Of a stretch of DNA of 64,000 bases, positions 13,401-39,390 are shown one piece after another. The number at the start of each line of letters is the position of its first letter. The first letter of the stretch is position 1. The stretch covers positions 64,001 to 128,000 of the IMG/VR virus record IMGVR_UViG_3300033120_000868; one strand, written 5' to 3'. This stretch comes from a virus (Duplodnaviria; Caudoviricetes). The notes below the pieces were generated by a model, which searched no databases, was not told where the DNA came from, and saw only the letters and a list, made by a program, of their open reading frames with translations. The position numbers and the translations under genes are program-made.

Positions 13401-15796
13401 ATACAAAGTTAGCAAATTGGTATTTAACTGAATCTACACCTTTAGCAGATATCTTAAAACAGCAAGCTTTAAGAGAGACAAAAGTTGAAGAAACAGTAGA
13501 AGATGTTTTAACAGATGAAGATGTTGATGGGATGCTTGAAAAAGATAGAAAAACAAGCAGACCTTTCAATTTTTTACAGACCGTGCAAGATGTTTATTTA
13601 CAGTTTTACAAAGATAGTAATACATACTATTTTTCTCACCTGTCACCAAGAGGATTTTTAAAATTTATTGGGGCGACAACAGATTTAAAAGTACAAAGAA
13701 AAGATAGTAAAAAAGTTGAACCTTTTTCTTTAGACGATGAATTAAAAACAGGGGATAGAGTATTCTTTGGAAACAACATGTCGTTTGCTTTAGAGGACGG
13801 AGCGAGAATAAAAATTGTAACATCAAAAGAGAACTTTAATTCTTTCGGTTTTAAAACAAGAATGACAGCAAGTGGATATAGTGTAGTTTACGATGGAGAT
13901 AAAGTTATGAAATCTGATTATGCAGATATAGACACTTACTCACCTCAAGAAATAATGAGGTTAGCTAATGGAGATGAAATATTTGCTTTTATAGATATGG
14001 AAGATAGTTATAATCAATCTCTAACAGAAGAAGAGTTTGAGCATAATGTTAAAATATCTTTCAGAGACGCTCAAGGTAATAAAATTGCAGATTTAAAAGC
14101 TTTACATTTAGCAGAGGCACAAGATACTTCAGAAATACCTGTTAAGTTTTTAGAAGCTCGTGCAAAAGCAAAAGAATTAGCTTGGGGTAAAACAGGAAGT
14201 ATTGAGTTAGGAAATGTAACAGTTGAAACAGTATTTTTAGGAGCTCCAAACGTAGTTTTAGAAAATGGAGTAGAGAAATGGCAACCTGTTGATGAAAATT
14301 TAATAGAAGACTCAGGAATGTGGAATGGAAGTAAATTAGTAACTAAGAATGGCACAAAAGGGATAAGAACAGATTTACTAAAAGGTATTGATAAGAAAGT
14401 TCCTGTTGTAATTGTAAAAGTTGGAAACACTTTAATTGCATATCCTGTTAGAGGAGGAAAAGTAGCTTCTAATATAGCAGAAACTTTCACTGAAAAAGGA
14501 GCTAAATTAGCATTAAAAATTAATGAAACTCTTATTAAAAATGGTAAAAAACCTGCTCAAATATATTATAATTCAGAGACAGACCAAAACATGTATTCAG
14601 AGGATGGAACGCCAACTCAAGAATTGCAAGATGCTTTAGACAGAGTTAACAGTATAACAACAGAATCAACAAATATAGCAGAAGCTGAAATAAACATTGA
14701 TTTAAATGGTATACCGTTCTTAGCTCCAAAGATGGCAATTAACTTGGACAGTTTCCAAACAGTTAATGTAGCACCTGTAGGGCAGGCAACCTCCCAAAGT
14801 AATATAACTAGTGAAACAAAAGTAGAAGAGGTTTTAACACAGGAGCAAAAGGATAATTTAGAAAAAGCTAAAAAAGGAGAGAAAGCTTCTCCTGCTAAGA
14901 CTATTTTTAATTCTGTACAAGATTTACTGAAACACTCAAAATCACTGTTAGGTAAAACTTTTAACGTAAAAGGATTAAATGTTCAATTCGTTGACTATAA
15001 AGGCGAGGTTTTAACAGGAGCTGGTCAAAGAGTTTTTGTAAAAGTTTTAATAAATGGAGTTCCTGTAACGTTTTATAGTTCGACAGGTTCAGGCAAGAAA
15101 GCTTTACAAGAAGGAGTTTTTTATCCAACATTAGGTATAGAGGCAGACGAGAGATTTAATGGAACTTGGATTAATAAGATAGACGGTGTTGAAATGGCTT
15201 CTTATTATGACTCTGCTTCATTAGCAGCAGTAGGAGCTTTTATAGATTCTCAATTTGGAAACACTAATGGTTTTGCAGGAAGTATAAATCAAAACACAAC
15301 TGACTTACAAAATCCTAACAAAGAAGCCTTAACTAAAGAAAAAGCTTTGGAGATTAGAAGAGAGTATAACAGTGAATATTTAAATAGCGGTAGAGAAACT
15401 TTTTCAAATAATCAAGCTAAAGAAGTTACACAAGCTTTTAAAGATTTAGTTAATGAGATAAGAGGAAAAGTTAATAATACTCAACCTGCTCAAAAACCTA
15501 AAAGCAGATTAGACTTACAAGATGATTATTTTACTTTAGATTTTAAAACGTATGCTTATTTTAGAGATACAAATGGTGATGTTTATACAAAAGAAGTTGG
15601 AGAAATAGCTAGAGCTAAAACAATGTCTAACATGGTAAAAACTCTACCAAAAGCAGAACAAGAAAGAGTAAAACAAGCATGGACAAAGCAACCAGCAGAT
15701 TACTTTGAAAGTGAAAATTTTGAGAAAGTTGTACCAAACGTAGGAACAAGTTCGCGAACAAAACAAGGTAAGAAAAATAAAGATAAAGAGTGTTAA
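10409..15796 (+). CDS. Giant putative ejection/cargo protein A (1795 aa) with G/A-rich hydrophobic N-terminal segments
   Basis: Hydrophobic helices at about aa 120-490, a coiled coil, and a single Cys as the last residue; crAss-like cargo position. Confidence 0.6.
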   Translation: MVDIEDFKKQLDLAFPTKTPQQEKVFAEMDVESKKQEYANKLKIPSAPSSGGFLDTTKIKSEPGLRLETPNFNVDEIFSKTNSGEYIAKFDTYTPGIDNYDKFSREQTTGDKWLNGATQFTQTVVNSIAGLGNLVYGTGAMIKEGELSSFYDNDYMNWLDDVSEKRRLNNPIYKTYEEQEMGFGESLGTASFWADDFLQGASFTAGMIASELVLRGLTGGVVGGVGLSRAGLSATTQGASKMNTFKNAMGLARTAAVKPITTAMSNVLPKLGGATFGANLGKVANIVRTGVTSAGYEAGFEARHFMREMRANFEEDFIEANGVAPTEEDRAEFESALKSKANGLFAFNVAVVGASNIAQFGSALGLKLPKVKGFSSNPDSWINRKVFGVGVQDGAIATATMGNKLARVGYTFGKNAFLEGFVEEGLQGVGSKTAEKMLKDSYSLNNANQTMGYANAFYQSMSEQYGTEEGLKEVYLGMLIGAMTGSATNLVTARSLADGNFKVLDQRAKGIEKQLLKGGSYSADNMATRLLSANRTVANKRDEQKAIQEGDISGVQTARHSEMFNQTLRGIELNYLDQIKEQTLQQLDVLSDAEIAEMAGVEVSEASRIREELKNEYKAETKVIEDTINASKELIAGSLNKGEYNFAIEEFQKRGYSKEMANATVADMLQKSLAYEMYIGKVAYEQADNFLNTFLNEVQSSIGSTRVKKSFGINDTLNRSGKAARRNFNKTKKELQQTVSELEQLEKDYRRVENIISQTTAETGNRQQLVGQLNDLVNKREELNKRKQELEANANALLSSAKLETPFGATVDATEITADEILSFEEDITKTLEDLRKVSPEKAERLGGMLYEYQKSVNAYKTLDKRVKQLTDPNVGLRTKKGLLPSLFGRKTPNEQTAEMIRGLINTHYQLDRNTQEGVEKAVTKAAEEQLVEAGVDKKEILDYLKDQPYLFEQYNESTENIIPTEAEIEEYYDFAQRNIAGEEPLTDEEKVRFEELNTKLANWYLTESTPLADILKQQALRETKVEETVEDVLTDEDVDGMLEKDRKTSRPFNFLQTVQDVYLQFYKDSNTYYFSHLSPRGFLKFIGATTDLKVQRKDSKKVEPFSLDDELKTGDRVFFGNNMSFALEDGARIKIVTSKENFNSFGFKTRMTASGYSVVYDGDKVMKSDYADIDTYSPQEIMRLANGDEIFAFIDMEDSYNQSLTEEEFEHNVKISFRDAQGNKIADLKALHLAEAQDTSEIPVKFLEARAKAKELAWGKTGSIELGNVTVETVFLGAPNVVLENGVEKWQPVDENLIEDSGMWNGSKLVTKNGTKGIRTDLLKGIDKKVPVVIVKVGNTLIAYPVRGGKVASNIAETFTEKGAKLALKINETLIKNGKKPAQIYYNSETDQNMYSEDGTPTQELQDALDRVNSITTESTNIAEAEINIDLNGIPFLAPKMAINLDSFQTVNVAPVGQATSQSNITSETKVEEVLTQEQKDNLEKAKKGEKASPAKTIFNSVQDLLKHSKSLLGKTFNVKGLNVQFVDYKGEVLTGAGQRVFVKVLINGVPVTFYSSTGSGKKALQEGVFYPTLGIEADERFNGTWINKIDGVEMASYYDSASLAAVGAFIDSQFGNTNGFAGSINQNTTDLQNPNKEALTKEKALEIRREYNSEYLNSGRETFSNNQAKEVTQAFKDLVNEIRGKVNNTQPAQKPKSRLDLQDDYFTLDFKTYAYFRDTNGDVYTKEVGEIARAKTMSNMVKTLPKAEQERVKQAWTKQPADYFESENFEKVVPNVGTSSRTKQGKKNKDKEC

Positions 15797-36950: not shown

Positions 36951-36982
36951 CAAATATACTGATTATCTTTTAATTGTGCAAA
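36951..36982 (-). promoter_or_regulatory. Bacteroidetes sigma-A promoter
   Basis: TTTG (36979-36982), 20 nt, TATATTTG (36951-36958). Confidence 0.7.
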
Positions 36983-36999: not shown

Positions 37000-38238
37000 C
37001 TACTCTGAATTCTTTTTCTCAACATACTCCCACCTATCTTCCCAAAATGTTACCATTAATTCTAAATTTGTACACGGATAAACTTTAGCATTTTTACTTA
37101 TGTTTTCTGTATCCAACATCGGTTGTAAGTTGCTGTTATGAGAAATTAAGTACATGTCTTCTTCATTTTTAGCCCATGAATAAGGTATTATATGGTCTAA
37201 ATGCCAAGCTTTATTACAATCTTGTTTTTTACACGAACCTTGGTTTTCCCAAGACATACCTTTTATAAATTGTTTCTCTATATAATACATTGCGTTTTCA
37301 AACGTAGTACCTAATAATTTCTCCGTTTTACCTCCTTTTCTCCAACTACTATATCTATAAGCATCATTTATTCTACTTCTTAAATTTGTTTCAAGTCTAA
37401 ATAAGGGGTCATTTAAATACTTCTCTTTTCTTAACATTTTTCTCCTATGTAACCTTTCCTCTCTTGTTAGAGGAGGTATGTTTTTAGGAGGGTTGCGTCT
37501 TTTAGCTTCTTCACAAGCACATGATTTACACCAATATGATAATTTATCCTTACTTCTCTTAACTTTACCAAAAAAACTAGTTTCTTTAACTTTTTTGCAA
37601 CGAGTACAATATTTAAAACCATCTTCAACAATAGGTCTTTCTTCTAAATCAGGGACATCTTTATTTTGAGATGTATAATAATCTTCTCGTAAACATTTTT
37701 TACATCTACTTAAAGGTTTATCCTTGTTCTTTCCATAGTCATTGAAAGGTTTTTCTATCTTACACTTAGAGCATATCTTATGCCCATCTAAAACCACAAT
37801 AATTTCTTCAAAAACTCTATCTTTTACACATTTTTTACACTTAGGATTCTTCCCGTCTTTTTTACAACTCATATTTGTAAAGTCTGAAAAGTCTTTTTCT
37901 ATTTTACAAACTTTGCAAACTTTACTGCCTGTCAGTATTTCTTTACCTACAGGTTCTGTTTTATTTTTTATACACTCTTTACACCTTGATTTATATCCTG
38001 ATTTACTTCTTGTAGATATTGAAAAATCTGCTTCTGTTTTCATTAGTCCGCAACATTTACAAAACTTAGGAGTGTTGTATCTGATACTTTCTATATGCCT
38101 TGAGCTAATCCTTTCTTTACAACAAACTTTACATTTGGTCTCCCTGCCGTTTTTTGCTGTACTCTTTTTTGTGAATTCATTTAATTCTTTTTCAATACCG
38201 CAGGCACTACATATCCTTGTAATTTCTTCATTTTCCAT
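37000..38238 (-). CDS. HNH homing endonuclease with five tandem CxxC…CxxC zinc-finger repeats
   Basis: Repeats of K.C..C..EK...F…C..C; C-terminal WHLDHIIP..HNSNLQPM..EN.SK. Confidence 0.75.
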   Translation of the reverse strand: MENEEITRICSACGIEKELNEFTKKSTAKNGRETKCKVCCKERISSRHIESIRYNTPKFCKCCGLMKTEADFSISTRSKSGYKSRCKECIKNKTEPVGKEILTGSKVCKVCKIEKDFSDFTNMSCKKDGKNPKCKKCVKDRVFEEIIVVLDGHKICSKCKIEKPFNDYGKNKDKPLSRCKKCLREDYYTSQNKDVPDLEERPIVEDGFKYCTRCKKVKETSFFGKVKRSKDKLSYWCKSCACEEAKRRNPPKNIPPLTREERLHRRKMLRKEKYLNDPLFRLETNLRSRINDAYRYSSWRKGGKTEKLLGTTFENAMYYIEKQFIKGMSWENQGSCKKQDCNKAWHLDHIIPYSWAKNEEDMYLISHNSNLQPMLDTENISKNAKVYPCTNLELMVTFWEDRWEYVEKKNSE

Positions 38239-38257
38239 ATATCTATAAAATAATAAT

Positions 38258-38348
38258 GCCTCGCAAATTTCACTGTATCAGGTTCGGACGAATACAGTTA
38301 CTCTTTTTGAGGCTAATATTTTGTACAACTTGCGTCCGAATTCAAGTT
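38258..38348 (-). ncRNA. Structured 5' leader RNA (two hairpins, kissing loops, loop-E motif)
   Basis: AACUUG/CAAGUU hairpin with loop UUCGGACG; GCCUC/GAGGC + CUGUAU/AUACAG hairpin with loop CGUCCGAA; AGUA/GAA internal loop. Confidence 0.55.
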
Positions 38349-38355
38349 TAAGCCA

Positions 38356-38387
38356 CAAATATAAAGTATTATTTTGATATATGCAAA
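38356..38387 (-). promoter_or_regulatory. Bacteroidetes sigma-A promoter for the HNH gene
   Basis: TTTG (38384-38387), 20 nt, TATATTTG (38356-38363). Confidence 0.7.
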
Positions 38388-38403
38388 TTAGTTAAATTGG
38401 TTG

Positions 38404-39390
38404 TTATTCTTCTCCATACCCTTCAGTTATTAATTTTCTAAAAGCTAAAGATAAGTCACCCTCGCATTCTAGCTCCACAAAAACATCAGTCGGAGAATAT
38501 CCCCTACCTACATCAAAACTTGTGCTTGTTGAAAAACAATTAAAAACCCTTGTGTCTGTATCAAATAAAGCACTACTACCTGATTTAGGATTACCTGCTC
38601 TTTTTAAACGAATAGATTTTCCTCTACTACCTTTACATTCTTCCCAACCACTATCTAAAAGTAAAGAGATGACATCCCCTCTCTCGTTATAATCTTCAAA
38701 AGGGCTTAATTTCCACTCTTTATACTTCTCTAGTCTTACATCCTTTCTTTCCTCTATTACATCATTAAATGAACGAGCTGTTTCTAAGATTAAGTTATAC
38801 TCCTCAATAGAAATATGGTTTATTTTTCCATAAACAAATTCATATCCTGGGCTAGGTGACATAACAACATACCCTCCTGAAACAGTAGTAGAGCCACCAC
38901 GAGTCTCAAGTAATACTCTAACCTTATCATTAGATGCTATTTTTAAAGCTTTTGAGCGAGTTTTAGCATCGTTGAATGCTTCCATATAGGTTGAATGTTT
39001 TTCGTACTCTGTAGTATATCTTGAAGCTAACTTTTGATTAGGTTCTACAACATCAGAAGAAAATATGAAATGGTAGCCTTTATTCTTAGTAGTTTGTACA
39101 AACATTTTTCTGAGAAGTTCTTCAGGTAATGCTTTTTTATACCTATCAAATAAATCTCCACTTAAATCATATTTCAAATCGAAGTCAATTGCTGTTGTCT
39201 TTTTATTTCCACCCATTAGTAAAGCAATACCCCAACAATTAATAAAATACTGCTCACATTCTTTTTCTGTCATAGGACGAGTTTGAAATTGACTCCAATC
39301 TCTAATTGCAGGAATCTTTTCGCTTGTAACAGGAATAACGGAGTAACCTGCTTTGCTATATTGTTTTGCTAATTCTACATAATTACTCAT
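38404..39390 (-). CDS. Bifunctional DNA primase/polymerase (Prim-Pol)
   Basis: GYSVIPV..K.P..W..FQ, AIDFD, TTKNKGYH, ETRG..GGYVV.SPS. Confidence 0.85.
   Translation of the reverse strand: MSNYVELAKQYSKAGYSVIPVTSEKIPAIRDWSQFQTRPMTEKECEQYFINCWGIALLMGGNKKTTAIDFDLKYDLSGDLFDRYKKALPEELLRKMFVQTTKNKGYHFIFSSDVVEPNQKLASRYTTEYEKHSTYMEAFNDAKTRSKALKIASNDKVRVLLETRGGSTTVSGGYVVMSPSPGYEFVYGKINHISIEEYNLILETARSFNDVIEERKDVRLEKYKEWKLSPFEDYNERGDVISLLLDSGWEECKGSRGKSIRLKRAGNPKSGSSALFDTDTRVFNCFSTSTSFDVGRGYSPTDVFVELECEGDLSLAFRKLITEGYGEE

Follow-up and report, generated by a model that had tools for sequence, protein, structure and literature searches.

Locus and mobile cassette

The window, a stretch of 64,000 nt (64 kb), comes from a virus record that is complete at 143 kb and has a G+C content of 30%, and its source is a marine Flavobacteriia-type phage. 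On the minus strand, 165 nt lie between the end of a prim-pol gene at position 38404 and the start of a gene for a zinc-ribbon HNH endonuclease at position 38238, and they contain, in this order, a promoter, a first hairpin (H1), a linker, a second hairpin (H2) and a tail leading to the ATG (Table 1). The promoter spans positions 38394-38356, with a spacing of 21 nt between its TAACTAATTT box and its -7 box. Exact matches to TAACTAATTT-N21-TAnnTTTG occur twice in the window, where none would be expected, and the promoter block of the leader recurs at two other sites in the genome. The transcript start would be located at approximately 38352-38349. The loops of the two hairpins are perfectly complementary to each other over 8 nt (38340-38333 pairing with 38290-38283). 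The ATG is located 19 nt downstream of H2, and neither the start codon nor the intervening 19 nt belong to the conserved fold. A Shine-Dalgarno sequence is lacking before this ATG, and no complementarity of either kissing loop to the start region was found, so that sequestration of the start region by either loop was rejected. Pairings of the linker with the tail and of the tail with the ORF are low-complexity A-U matches and were not taken as evidence. The first-pass annotation had described both hairpins, the AGUA and GAA words in H2, a start of the fold right after a promoter and an end of H2 about 20 nt before the ATG. The sequence, the minimum-energy fold and the covariation presented below agree with the hairpins, their coordinates and both words exactly as claimed, and a promoter of the class given above is indeed found directly upstream of H1.

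Table 1. Positions of the leader elements, of the surrounding cassette and of related features (window coordinates unless a locus or the genome is named).
Feature	Position	Strand	Basis or remark
Prim-pol gene, upstream flank	38404..39390	-	PF09250
Inserted cassette (promoter, leader and HNH gene)	37000..38403	-	comparison with cassette-free L109
Upstream promoter box TAACTAATTT	38385..38394	-	-33 TTTG (38387-38384) overlaps 3' end of box
-7 box TATATTTG, Bacteroidota type	38356..38363	-	ends 7 nt before H1
Hairpin 1 (H1)	38327..38348	-	6-bp stem 38348-38343/38332-38327, 10-nt loop; minimum-energy fold
Kissing segment 1	38333..38340	-	within H1 loop
A-rich single-stranded linker, 13 nt	38314..38326	-	leader comparison
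Hairpin 2 (H2)	38258..38313	-	minimum-energy fold, pair counting, RNAalifold
H2 outer stem	38313-38309/38262-38258	-	5 bp, G+C-rich base; invariant in aligned leaders
H2 3-bp A-U helix	38306-38304/38267-38265	-	covaries at one pair
H2 internal loop, 5' strand G-AGUA	38299..38303	-	AGUA 38302-38299; invariant in 7 subfamily leaders
H2 inner stem and 11-nt loop	38298-38291/38279-38272	-	3 of 8 pairs compensatory
Kissing segment 2	38283..38290	-	within H2 loop; 8 pairs, 4 changed on both sides, 100% paired
H2 internal loop, partner strand GAA-A	38271-38268	-	GAA 38271-38269
U-rich tail, 19 nt, H2 to ATG	38239..38257	-	8 U among first 12 nt
Zinc-ribbon HNH (endonuclease VII-like) gene, 412 aa	37000..38238	-	phrog_1035, 3.7e-35
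Resident promoter of next gene, downstream of cassette	36951..36982	-	TTTG 36982-36979, 20 nt, TATATTTG 36958-36951
Second leader, own genome	G000:C1:34095-34217 = L137:1596-1718	-	11-nt kiss, nearly continuous 29-bp H2, no U-run
vB_FspP_elemoA_10-9C leader	L171:1138-1213 = MT497080.1, about 15573-15648	-	8-nt kiss, ninth pair type
Canonical terminators, examples	116462-116489, 124043-124068, 109020-109047	-	own genome

In the cassette-free relative L109, the sequence 3' of the prim-pol stop is collinear with, and approximately 90% identical to, the window sequence 3' of the HNH stop, and the shared stretch includes the resident promoter and the beginning of the next gene. This collinearity identifies 37000-38403 as the insert, in keeping with the earlier claim that the leader travels with the mobile nuclease. 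The next gene is more likely to start at an ATG (36923) than at the mechanically listed TTG (36953). The D-H...N...N columns and the CxxC pairs of the HNH protein are invariant. All five closest HNH homologues are encoded directly after prim-pol, while the gene is absent from this position in all of the 41 relatives that were fetched through prim-pol. With its presence or absence between conserved flanks and its catalytic motifs, the insert has the appearance of a free-standing homing endonuclease cassette. The identity between the window and L133 is 98.9% for the leader and 97.5% for the first 80 nt of the HNH gene, compared to 91.7% for the adjoining prim-pol sequence, which would fit a recent spread of the cassette. 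Other occupants of the prim-pol-adjacent site are GIY-YIG genes (L098 and L129) and another nuclease-like ORF (L122), making this position a hot spot for selfish nucleases. A distant HNH gene is located just upstream of prim-pol in L094 and L109. No terminator was seen after prim-pol in a simple terminator scan.

Two relatives carry the nuclease ORF without the fold. The HNH protein of L007 is intact (412 aa, 95% identical), and H1 and the 5' half of H2 have been lost between short direct repeats (L007:230-300). There is no leader in L010, where an HNH ORF without its first approximately 48 residues starts inside the last prim-pol codons (L010:2990-3100). Judging from these two loci, the fold would be dispensable in the short term. 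A split primase or a group I intron, an idea prompted by a PHROG profile of which prim-pol matches the first 332 out of 865 positions, was rejected on account of 369 stand-alone relatives of about 328 aa, the lack of a match to an intron model and the unrelated downstream ORF.

Homologous leaders and covariation

The 8-nt kissing word occurs at only these two places in the 64 kb, where 0.19 would be expected. The minimum-energy fold contains both hairpins, and its energy is by itself unremarkable (z = -1.34). When both strands of the 143-kb genome were searched with a strict descriptor (minimum stem lengths of 5, 6 and 5 bp, and a kiss of 8 nt or more that includes three or more G/C), only the window leader, its mirror image and one other leader were obtained, and nothing was found in three shuffled genomes. 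A loose descriptor consisting of two hairpins and a kiss finds approximately 0.37 matches per kb per strand in A+T-rich DNA, and the decisive support therefore has to come from conservation with covariation in homologous leaders.

Leaders were gathered starting from the closest HNH proteins, from close prim-pol proteins, from a profile scan of viral contigs, from two DNA-pattern scans anchored on conserved flanks, and from a cultured Flavobacterium phage. This resulted in 16 leaders with a common order of parts and nine different loop-loop sequence pairs. Loop 1 and loop 2 of the same leader match over 8-11 nt, whereas the match with foreign partners is 3.1 nt on average and 6 nt at most (15 leaders, 184 cross comparisons), and a shuffled loop 2 does as well as the real one in no more than 0.18% of trials. 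Since MAFFT misplaced the stems of distant leader types, these were compared by a length-based parse, and pairs were counted only for the 7 alignable leaders. Among these 7, standard pairs fill 97.9% of the pair cells, compared to 33-44% in the slid controls, and both sides are altered in 10 of the pairs. Of the 8 pairs in the kissing helix, 4 are compensatory and no cell is broken (100% paired), and L157, whose leader is otherwise near-identical, shows a clean swap from C-G to A-U in this helix. Three of the six pairs of the H1 stem change on both sides with all cells paired, and RNAalifold independently predicts the same nested helices, H1 included. The loop-loop covariation, proposed as a check by the first-pass annotation, is thus clearly present, and its perfect 8-nt complement is matched by full pairing in the aligned leaders. 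Taken at the level of sequence comparison, the leader is a real, conserved folded RNA and not the product of chance. The aligned leaders contain 11 G.U cells against 3 A.C cells, which points to the RNA of the coding strand, and it is on this strand that the leader sits between promoter and ATG. The linkers measure 9-14 nt and are mostly A-rich in 13 out of 15 leaders, the distance from the end of the fold to the ATG is 11-23 nt, and the -7 box, in the collected leaders where it is recognisable, ends 0-10 nt before H1.

A covariance model of the leader recovered only close relatives and one terminator-like hairpin. A DNA search of cultured phages gave nothing, and single-protein scans of viral contigs gave little. 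The closest cultured prim-pol relatives are those of the Cellulophaga phages phi4:1 and phi17:2 (47% identity), and no leader was detected by descriptor in phi4:1. The cultured Flavobacterium phage vB_FspP_elemoA_10-9C does carry the promoter-leader design, before a putative HNH endonuclease gene and with an 11-nt U-run ending at the ATG. In L151, L158 and L016, the arms of H1 resemble those of the H2 inner stem, so that a strand-swapped alternative pairing is possible; this resemblance is not seen in the leader type of the window.

In the subfamily represented in the window, H2 is an almost continuous stack of outer stem, 3-bp A-U helix, G-AGUA/GAA-A loop and inner stem. Between the 3-bp helix and the inner stem, only the G-AGUA/GAA-A loop (alignment columns 47-51 and 81-84) is left unpaired, and this loop is invariant in the 7 leaders of the subfamily while the surrounding helices change. 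Its size and sequence make a sarcin-ricin-like module plausible for this subfamily. Tandem G.A loops are found at the same place in L135/L165, L008/L009 and L096, and nearly plain helices in L011, L023 and L137. The assignment of AGUA/GAA to the sarcin-ricin/loop-E motif is consequently plausible for the seven leaders in which it is invariant and framed by covarying helices, but it does not carry over to the other subfamilies, from which the motif is missing. By this comparison AGUA/GAA is a subfamily trait and not a defining feature of the family, whereas all leaders in general have some irregularity, or hinge, beneath the inner stem.

Leaders of this design are found before genes of four endonuclease families and before two genes that do not code for nucleases. 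The nucleases are the zinc-ribbon HNH enzyme, an HNH enzyme of another family in L135, a third endonuclease family represented in L158, L165 and, as a remnant, L136, and a GIY-YIG enzyme in L096. The other two genes are an 81-aa ORF in L153 and a 308-aa ORF resembling HTH_36-type DNA-binding proteins, which starts 11 nt after the second leader of the genome (L137). Leaders have been swapped onto different ORFs right at the ATG. A tRNA gene is located approximately 210 nt upstream of the L137 leader. The diversity of downstream proteins argues against an RNA partner or an autoregulatory site of one nuclease, and the lack of a core conserved across subfamilies against a ribozyme. These suggestions of the first-pass annotation are not upheld, as the leader also precedes unrelated nucleases and non-nuclease genes and no nucleotides are conserved outside one subfamily.

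A U-rich run directly 3' of H2 is present in 14 of the 16 leaders, covering 8 of the 9 loop-pair types, and is absent from the second leader of this genome (L137). Only 4% of the genes of this genome have at least 8 U at positions -19 to -8, the normal start regions being A-rich there (6.1 A and 3.8 U out of 12). When compared to terminators, H2 has a G+C-rich 5-bp base and 8 U in 12 nt, but its loop is of 11 nt, its stem is irregular and its U-run is interrupted by A, and a consensus scan does not call it. The canonical terminators of this phage have stems of 9-11 bp and loops of 4-10 nt, with an A-tract before and a U-run after, and the A-rich linker before H2 resembles this A-tract.

Relation to known systems

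At the gathering score, the window gave 0 matches to Rfam 15, which assigns the leader to no known family. For the region 37900-38700, a search with E values of up to 10 returned no ribozyme and nothing beyond two chance matches to eukaryotic families, and eight related loci gave only a tRNA. No description of this kissing-loop design was found in the literature on homing-endonuclease leaders. The kissing-loop leader itself is thus absent from Rfam, and it combines elements of known kinds, namely promoter-proximal attenuators, kissing-loop regulators and the leader hairpins of nuclease genes.

A close architectural parallel is the guanidine-IV riboswitch (mepA motif), whose first hairpin kisses the terminator hairpin and thereby controls termination; read-through depends on whether the kiss or the full terminator stem prevails (PMC11611296). 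Both RNAs have two hairpins, a loop-loop pairing and a U-run after the second hairpin, and both are found just downstream of a promoter. The guanidine-IV loops are conserved and bind guanidine, whereas the loops of the leader vary freely, with nine unrelated pair types, and kiss through 8-11 Watson-Crick pairs without a ligand pocket. The genes concerned also differ, being guanidine exporters in the one case and phage nucleases and an HTH protein in the other.

Leader hairpins are also known from the nuclease genes I-TevI, I-TevII, I-TevIII, segB, Aeh1 mobE and seg43(25) of the T4 family, the seg43(25) hairpin being located upstream of the start region without covering it (PMC2988022). As in the window, a stable RNA hairpin is found directly before a selfish nuclease ORF and is thought to hold its expression down. 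The T4 hairpins sequester the Shine-Dalgarno sequence, while the leader has none, its fold ends 19 nt before the ATG and only weak A-U pairing is predicted for its tail. The T4 hairpins moreover contain a late or middle promoter, from which shorter transcripts escape, while the promoter of the leader is upstream of the whole fold; an embedded promoter of this kind was rejected for the window, since the -7-like word inside H2 is not conserved in its subfamily. The leader also differs by having two kissing hairpins followed by a U-run. A perfect TAnnTTTG is present in the 3' half of H2 in L135 (L135:3625-3645) and L165, where it might serve as a T4-like embedded promoter, and is not found inside H2 in other leader types.

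In the lambdoid PR'-6S RNA-tR' unit, a strong promoter is followed approximately 100-200 nt later by a terminator, and the short leader RNA is the default product. Lambda needs the protein Q for read-through, and the unit controls the whole late operon. If the leader acts as an attenuator, it would likewise be a promoter-proximal terminator unit, but as a small, portable part of a cassette, with a kissing loop and no antiterminator known. The sarcin-ricin/loop E (bulged-G) module serves in rRNA and viroids as a tertiary or protein-docking module. The leader loop resembles it in sequence, having AGUA opposite GAA in an asymmetric internal loop with Watson-Crick helices on both sides, and differs in being confined to one leader subfamily. 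The HEARO/IscB omega-RNA is also a structured RNA next to an HNH nuclease gene. It is a nuclease-bound guide RNA, whereas the leader is a short 5' leader common to unrelated proteins and has no Rfam match.

Possible functions of the leader

Selfish nucleases need enough expression to spread, yet too little to harm the phage. To our knowledge, almost nothing is known about the control of their expression outside the T4 family, and the Bacteroidota do not have the Shine-Dalgarno logic used by the T4 examples. The leader most likely keeps the output of a risky nuclease gene low. As to how, we tentatively favour, at somewhat short of an even chance, a promoter-proximal attenuator gated by the kissing loop, which would keep the nuclease mRNA scarce through termination that we infer to occur at H2. 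Transcripts from the cassette promoter and those reading through from prim-pol would largely stop at H2 and its U-run, the ease of terminator formation would depend on the loop-loop helix, and little nuclease mRNA would be made. The kiss could either speed the folding of the terminator or sterically oppose its outer stem. The resident downstream gene would be served by its own promoter, and because of this promoter a terminator at this position costs the phage nothing. A start region outside the fold and without a Shine-Dalgarno sequence speaks for control of elongation rather than masking of the start site, as does the G+C-rich base of H2 with its immediate U-run, which is atypical for this genome. 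Further points in favour of an attenuator are the A-rich linker, the use of hairpins with U-runs as terminators in this genome, the L023 hairpin with a leader-like tail described below, and the guanidine-IV riboswitch, where a terminator hairpin is likewise kissed by a first hairpin.

Several observations count against it. H2 is a non-canonical terminator, with a basal stem of 5 bp below an internal loop, and is not called by the scan. L137 has no U-run, and L007 and L010 keep the nuclease ORF (intact in L007) without the fold. A promoter directly before a terminator needs leakiness or an antitermination signal, and the U-run could merely weaken translation initiation.

A further generalisation, which we consider rather doubtful, is that ligand-independent kissing-loop attenuators form a portable 'expression governor' for the selfish cassettes of Bacteroidota phages. 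The freely evolving loop pair would then be a private address guarding co-expressed leaders against cross-pairing, and read-through would be set by transcription speed, Mg2+, temperature or a phage factor. If true, such a governor would be a new class of RNA control, being neither a riboswitch nor protein-dependent antitermination. The kissing loop of the leader tolerates any sequence provided that its partner matches, and the leader is carried by cassettes with different nucleases. Ligand-free gating of termination would add a new design to the few kissing-loop regulators, and would provide a small, programmable and orthogonal control part for the Bacteroidota, where genetic tools are scarce. 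The copy of the leader in a cultured Flavobacterium phage makes the question directly testable.

Post-transcriptional control is an alternative that we hold to be somewhat unlikely. The compact 5' fold would protect the end of the mRNA and insulate the start region from the context in which the cassette lands, while the U-rich start throttles the loading of ribosomes, with no termination involved. It is in line with H1 being within a few nt of the presumed transcript start in every leader with a recognisable promoter, with the 11-23 nt between fold and ATG, and with start regions that do not have the A-rich pattern of normal genes. The leader and the last bases before the ATG are reused as one module before different ORFs, several leaders show a weak predicted pairing of the U-run with A-rich first codons, and leader hairpins control nuclease genes in the T4 family (PMC2988022). 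However, the fold of the window leader stops 19 nt short of the start codon, there is no Shine-Dalgarno sequence to sequester, and the predicted pairing of tail and ORF is low-complexity A-U. It also leaves unexplained why the G+C-rich base of H2 abuts a U-run in 8 of the 9 loop-pair types. A plain translational switch, one of the roles first suggested for this RNA, is possible, but the fold does not take in the start region, and the most conspicuous feature is a U-run like that of a terminator.

The remaining explanations are much less probable. H2 could be a processing site for RNase III or a similar enzyme, uncoupling the nuclease mRNA from the prim-pol transcript in the way of the T7 early-gene hairpins. 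With approximately 20 bp equivalents and an internal loop, H2 does resemble the T7 RNase III sites, its helix would be extended by the kiss, and read-through from prim-pol is likely since no terminator was seen after that gene. We nevertheless find this very unlikely, as the internal loop ranges from a sarcin-ricin-like module to none at all, and as a cassette with its own promoter needs no cut for its 5' end. Slightly less credible still is a protein-binding site, where the nuclease itself (for autoregulation or with the RNA as cofactor) or another phage or host protein would recognise the conserved internal loop. Modules of the sarcin-ricin/loop E kind are common protein platforms, G-AGUA/GAA-A is invariant in seven leaders amid changing helices, and I-TevI represses its own expression, though by binding to DNA (PMC2988022). 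The loop motif is nevertheless absent from the other subfamilies, and the downstream protein cannot be the common binding partner, since it may be a zinc-ribbon HNH enzyme, a member of two other HNH/endonuclease families, a GIY-YIG enzyme, an HTH protein or the product of an 81-aa ORF.

Pairing of the loops between molecules, leading to dimers or chains of leaders, is similarly improbable. It would suit L023, whose H2 is a nearly continuous helix of 25-29 bp with a short linker, so that an intramolecular kiss would, by an estimate of the geometry, need a sharp bend; most leaders, however, have an internal loop or hinge and a linker of 9-14 nt, which permit an intramolecular kiss. Least likely of all is a self-cleaving ribozyme or a role of the structure in DNA, be it as a cruciform, as a single-stranded recombination site or as a homing site. 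Inverted repeats can form hairpins on either strand, and the strict descriptor also accepts the mirror image. However, the preference for G.U cells speaks for the coding strand, the leader has a fixed place between -7 box and ATG, and other leaders do not share the AAC...GTT appearance of H1. A ribozyme has against it the lack of a core conserved across subfamilies and the Rfam results given above.

Two minor observations concern terminators. Some of the canonical terminators of this phage are closely followed by the TAACTAATTT promoter class. In L023 (L023:4115-4170), a 7-bp G+C-rich hairpin followed by a tail of the leader type is found right after a stop codon, and it looks, from its sequence, like a terminator that uses this tail.
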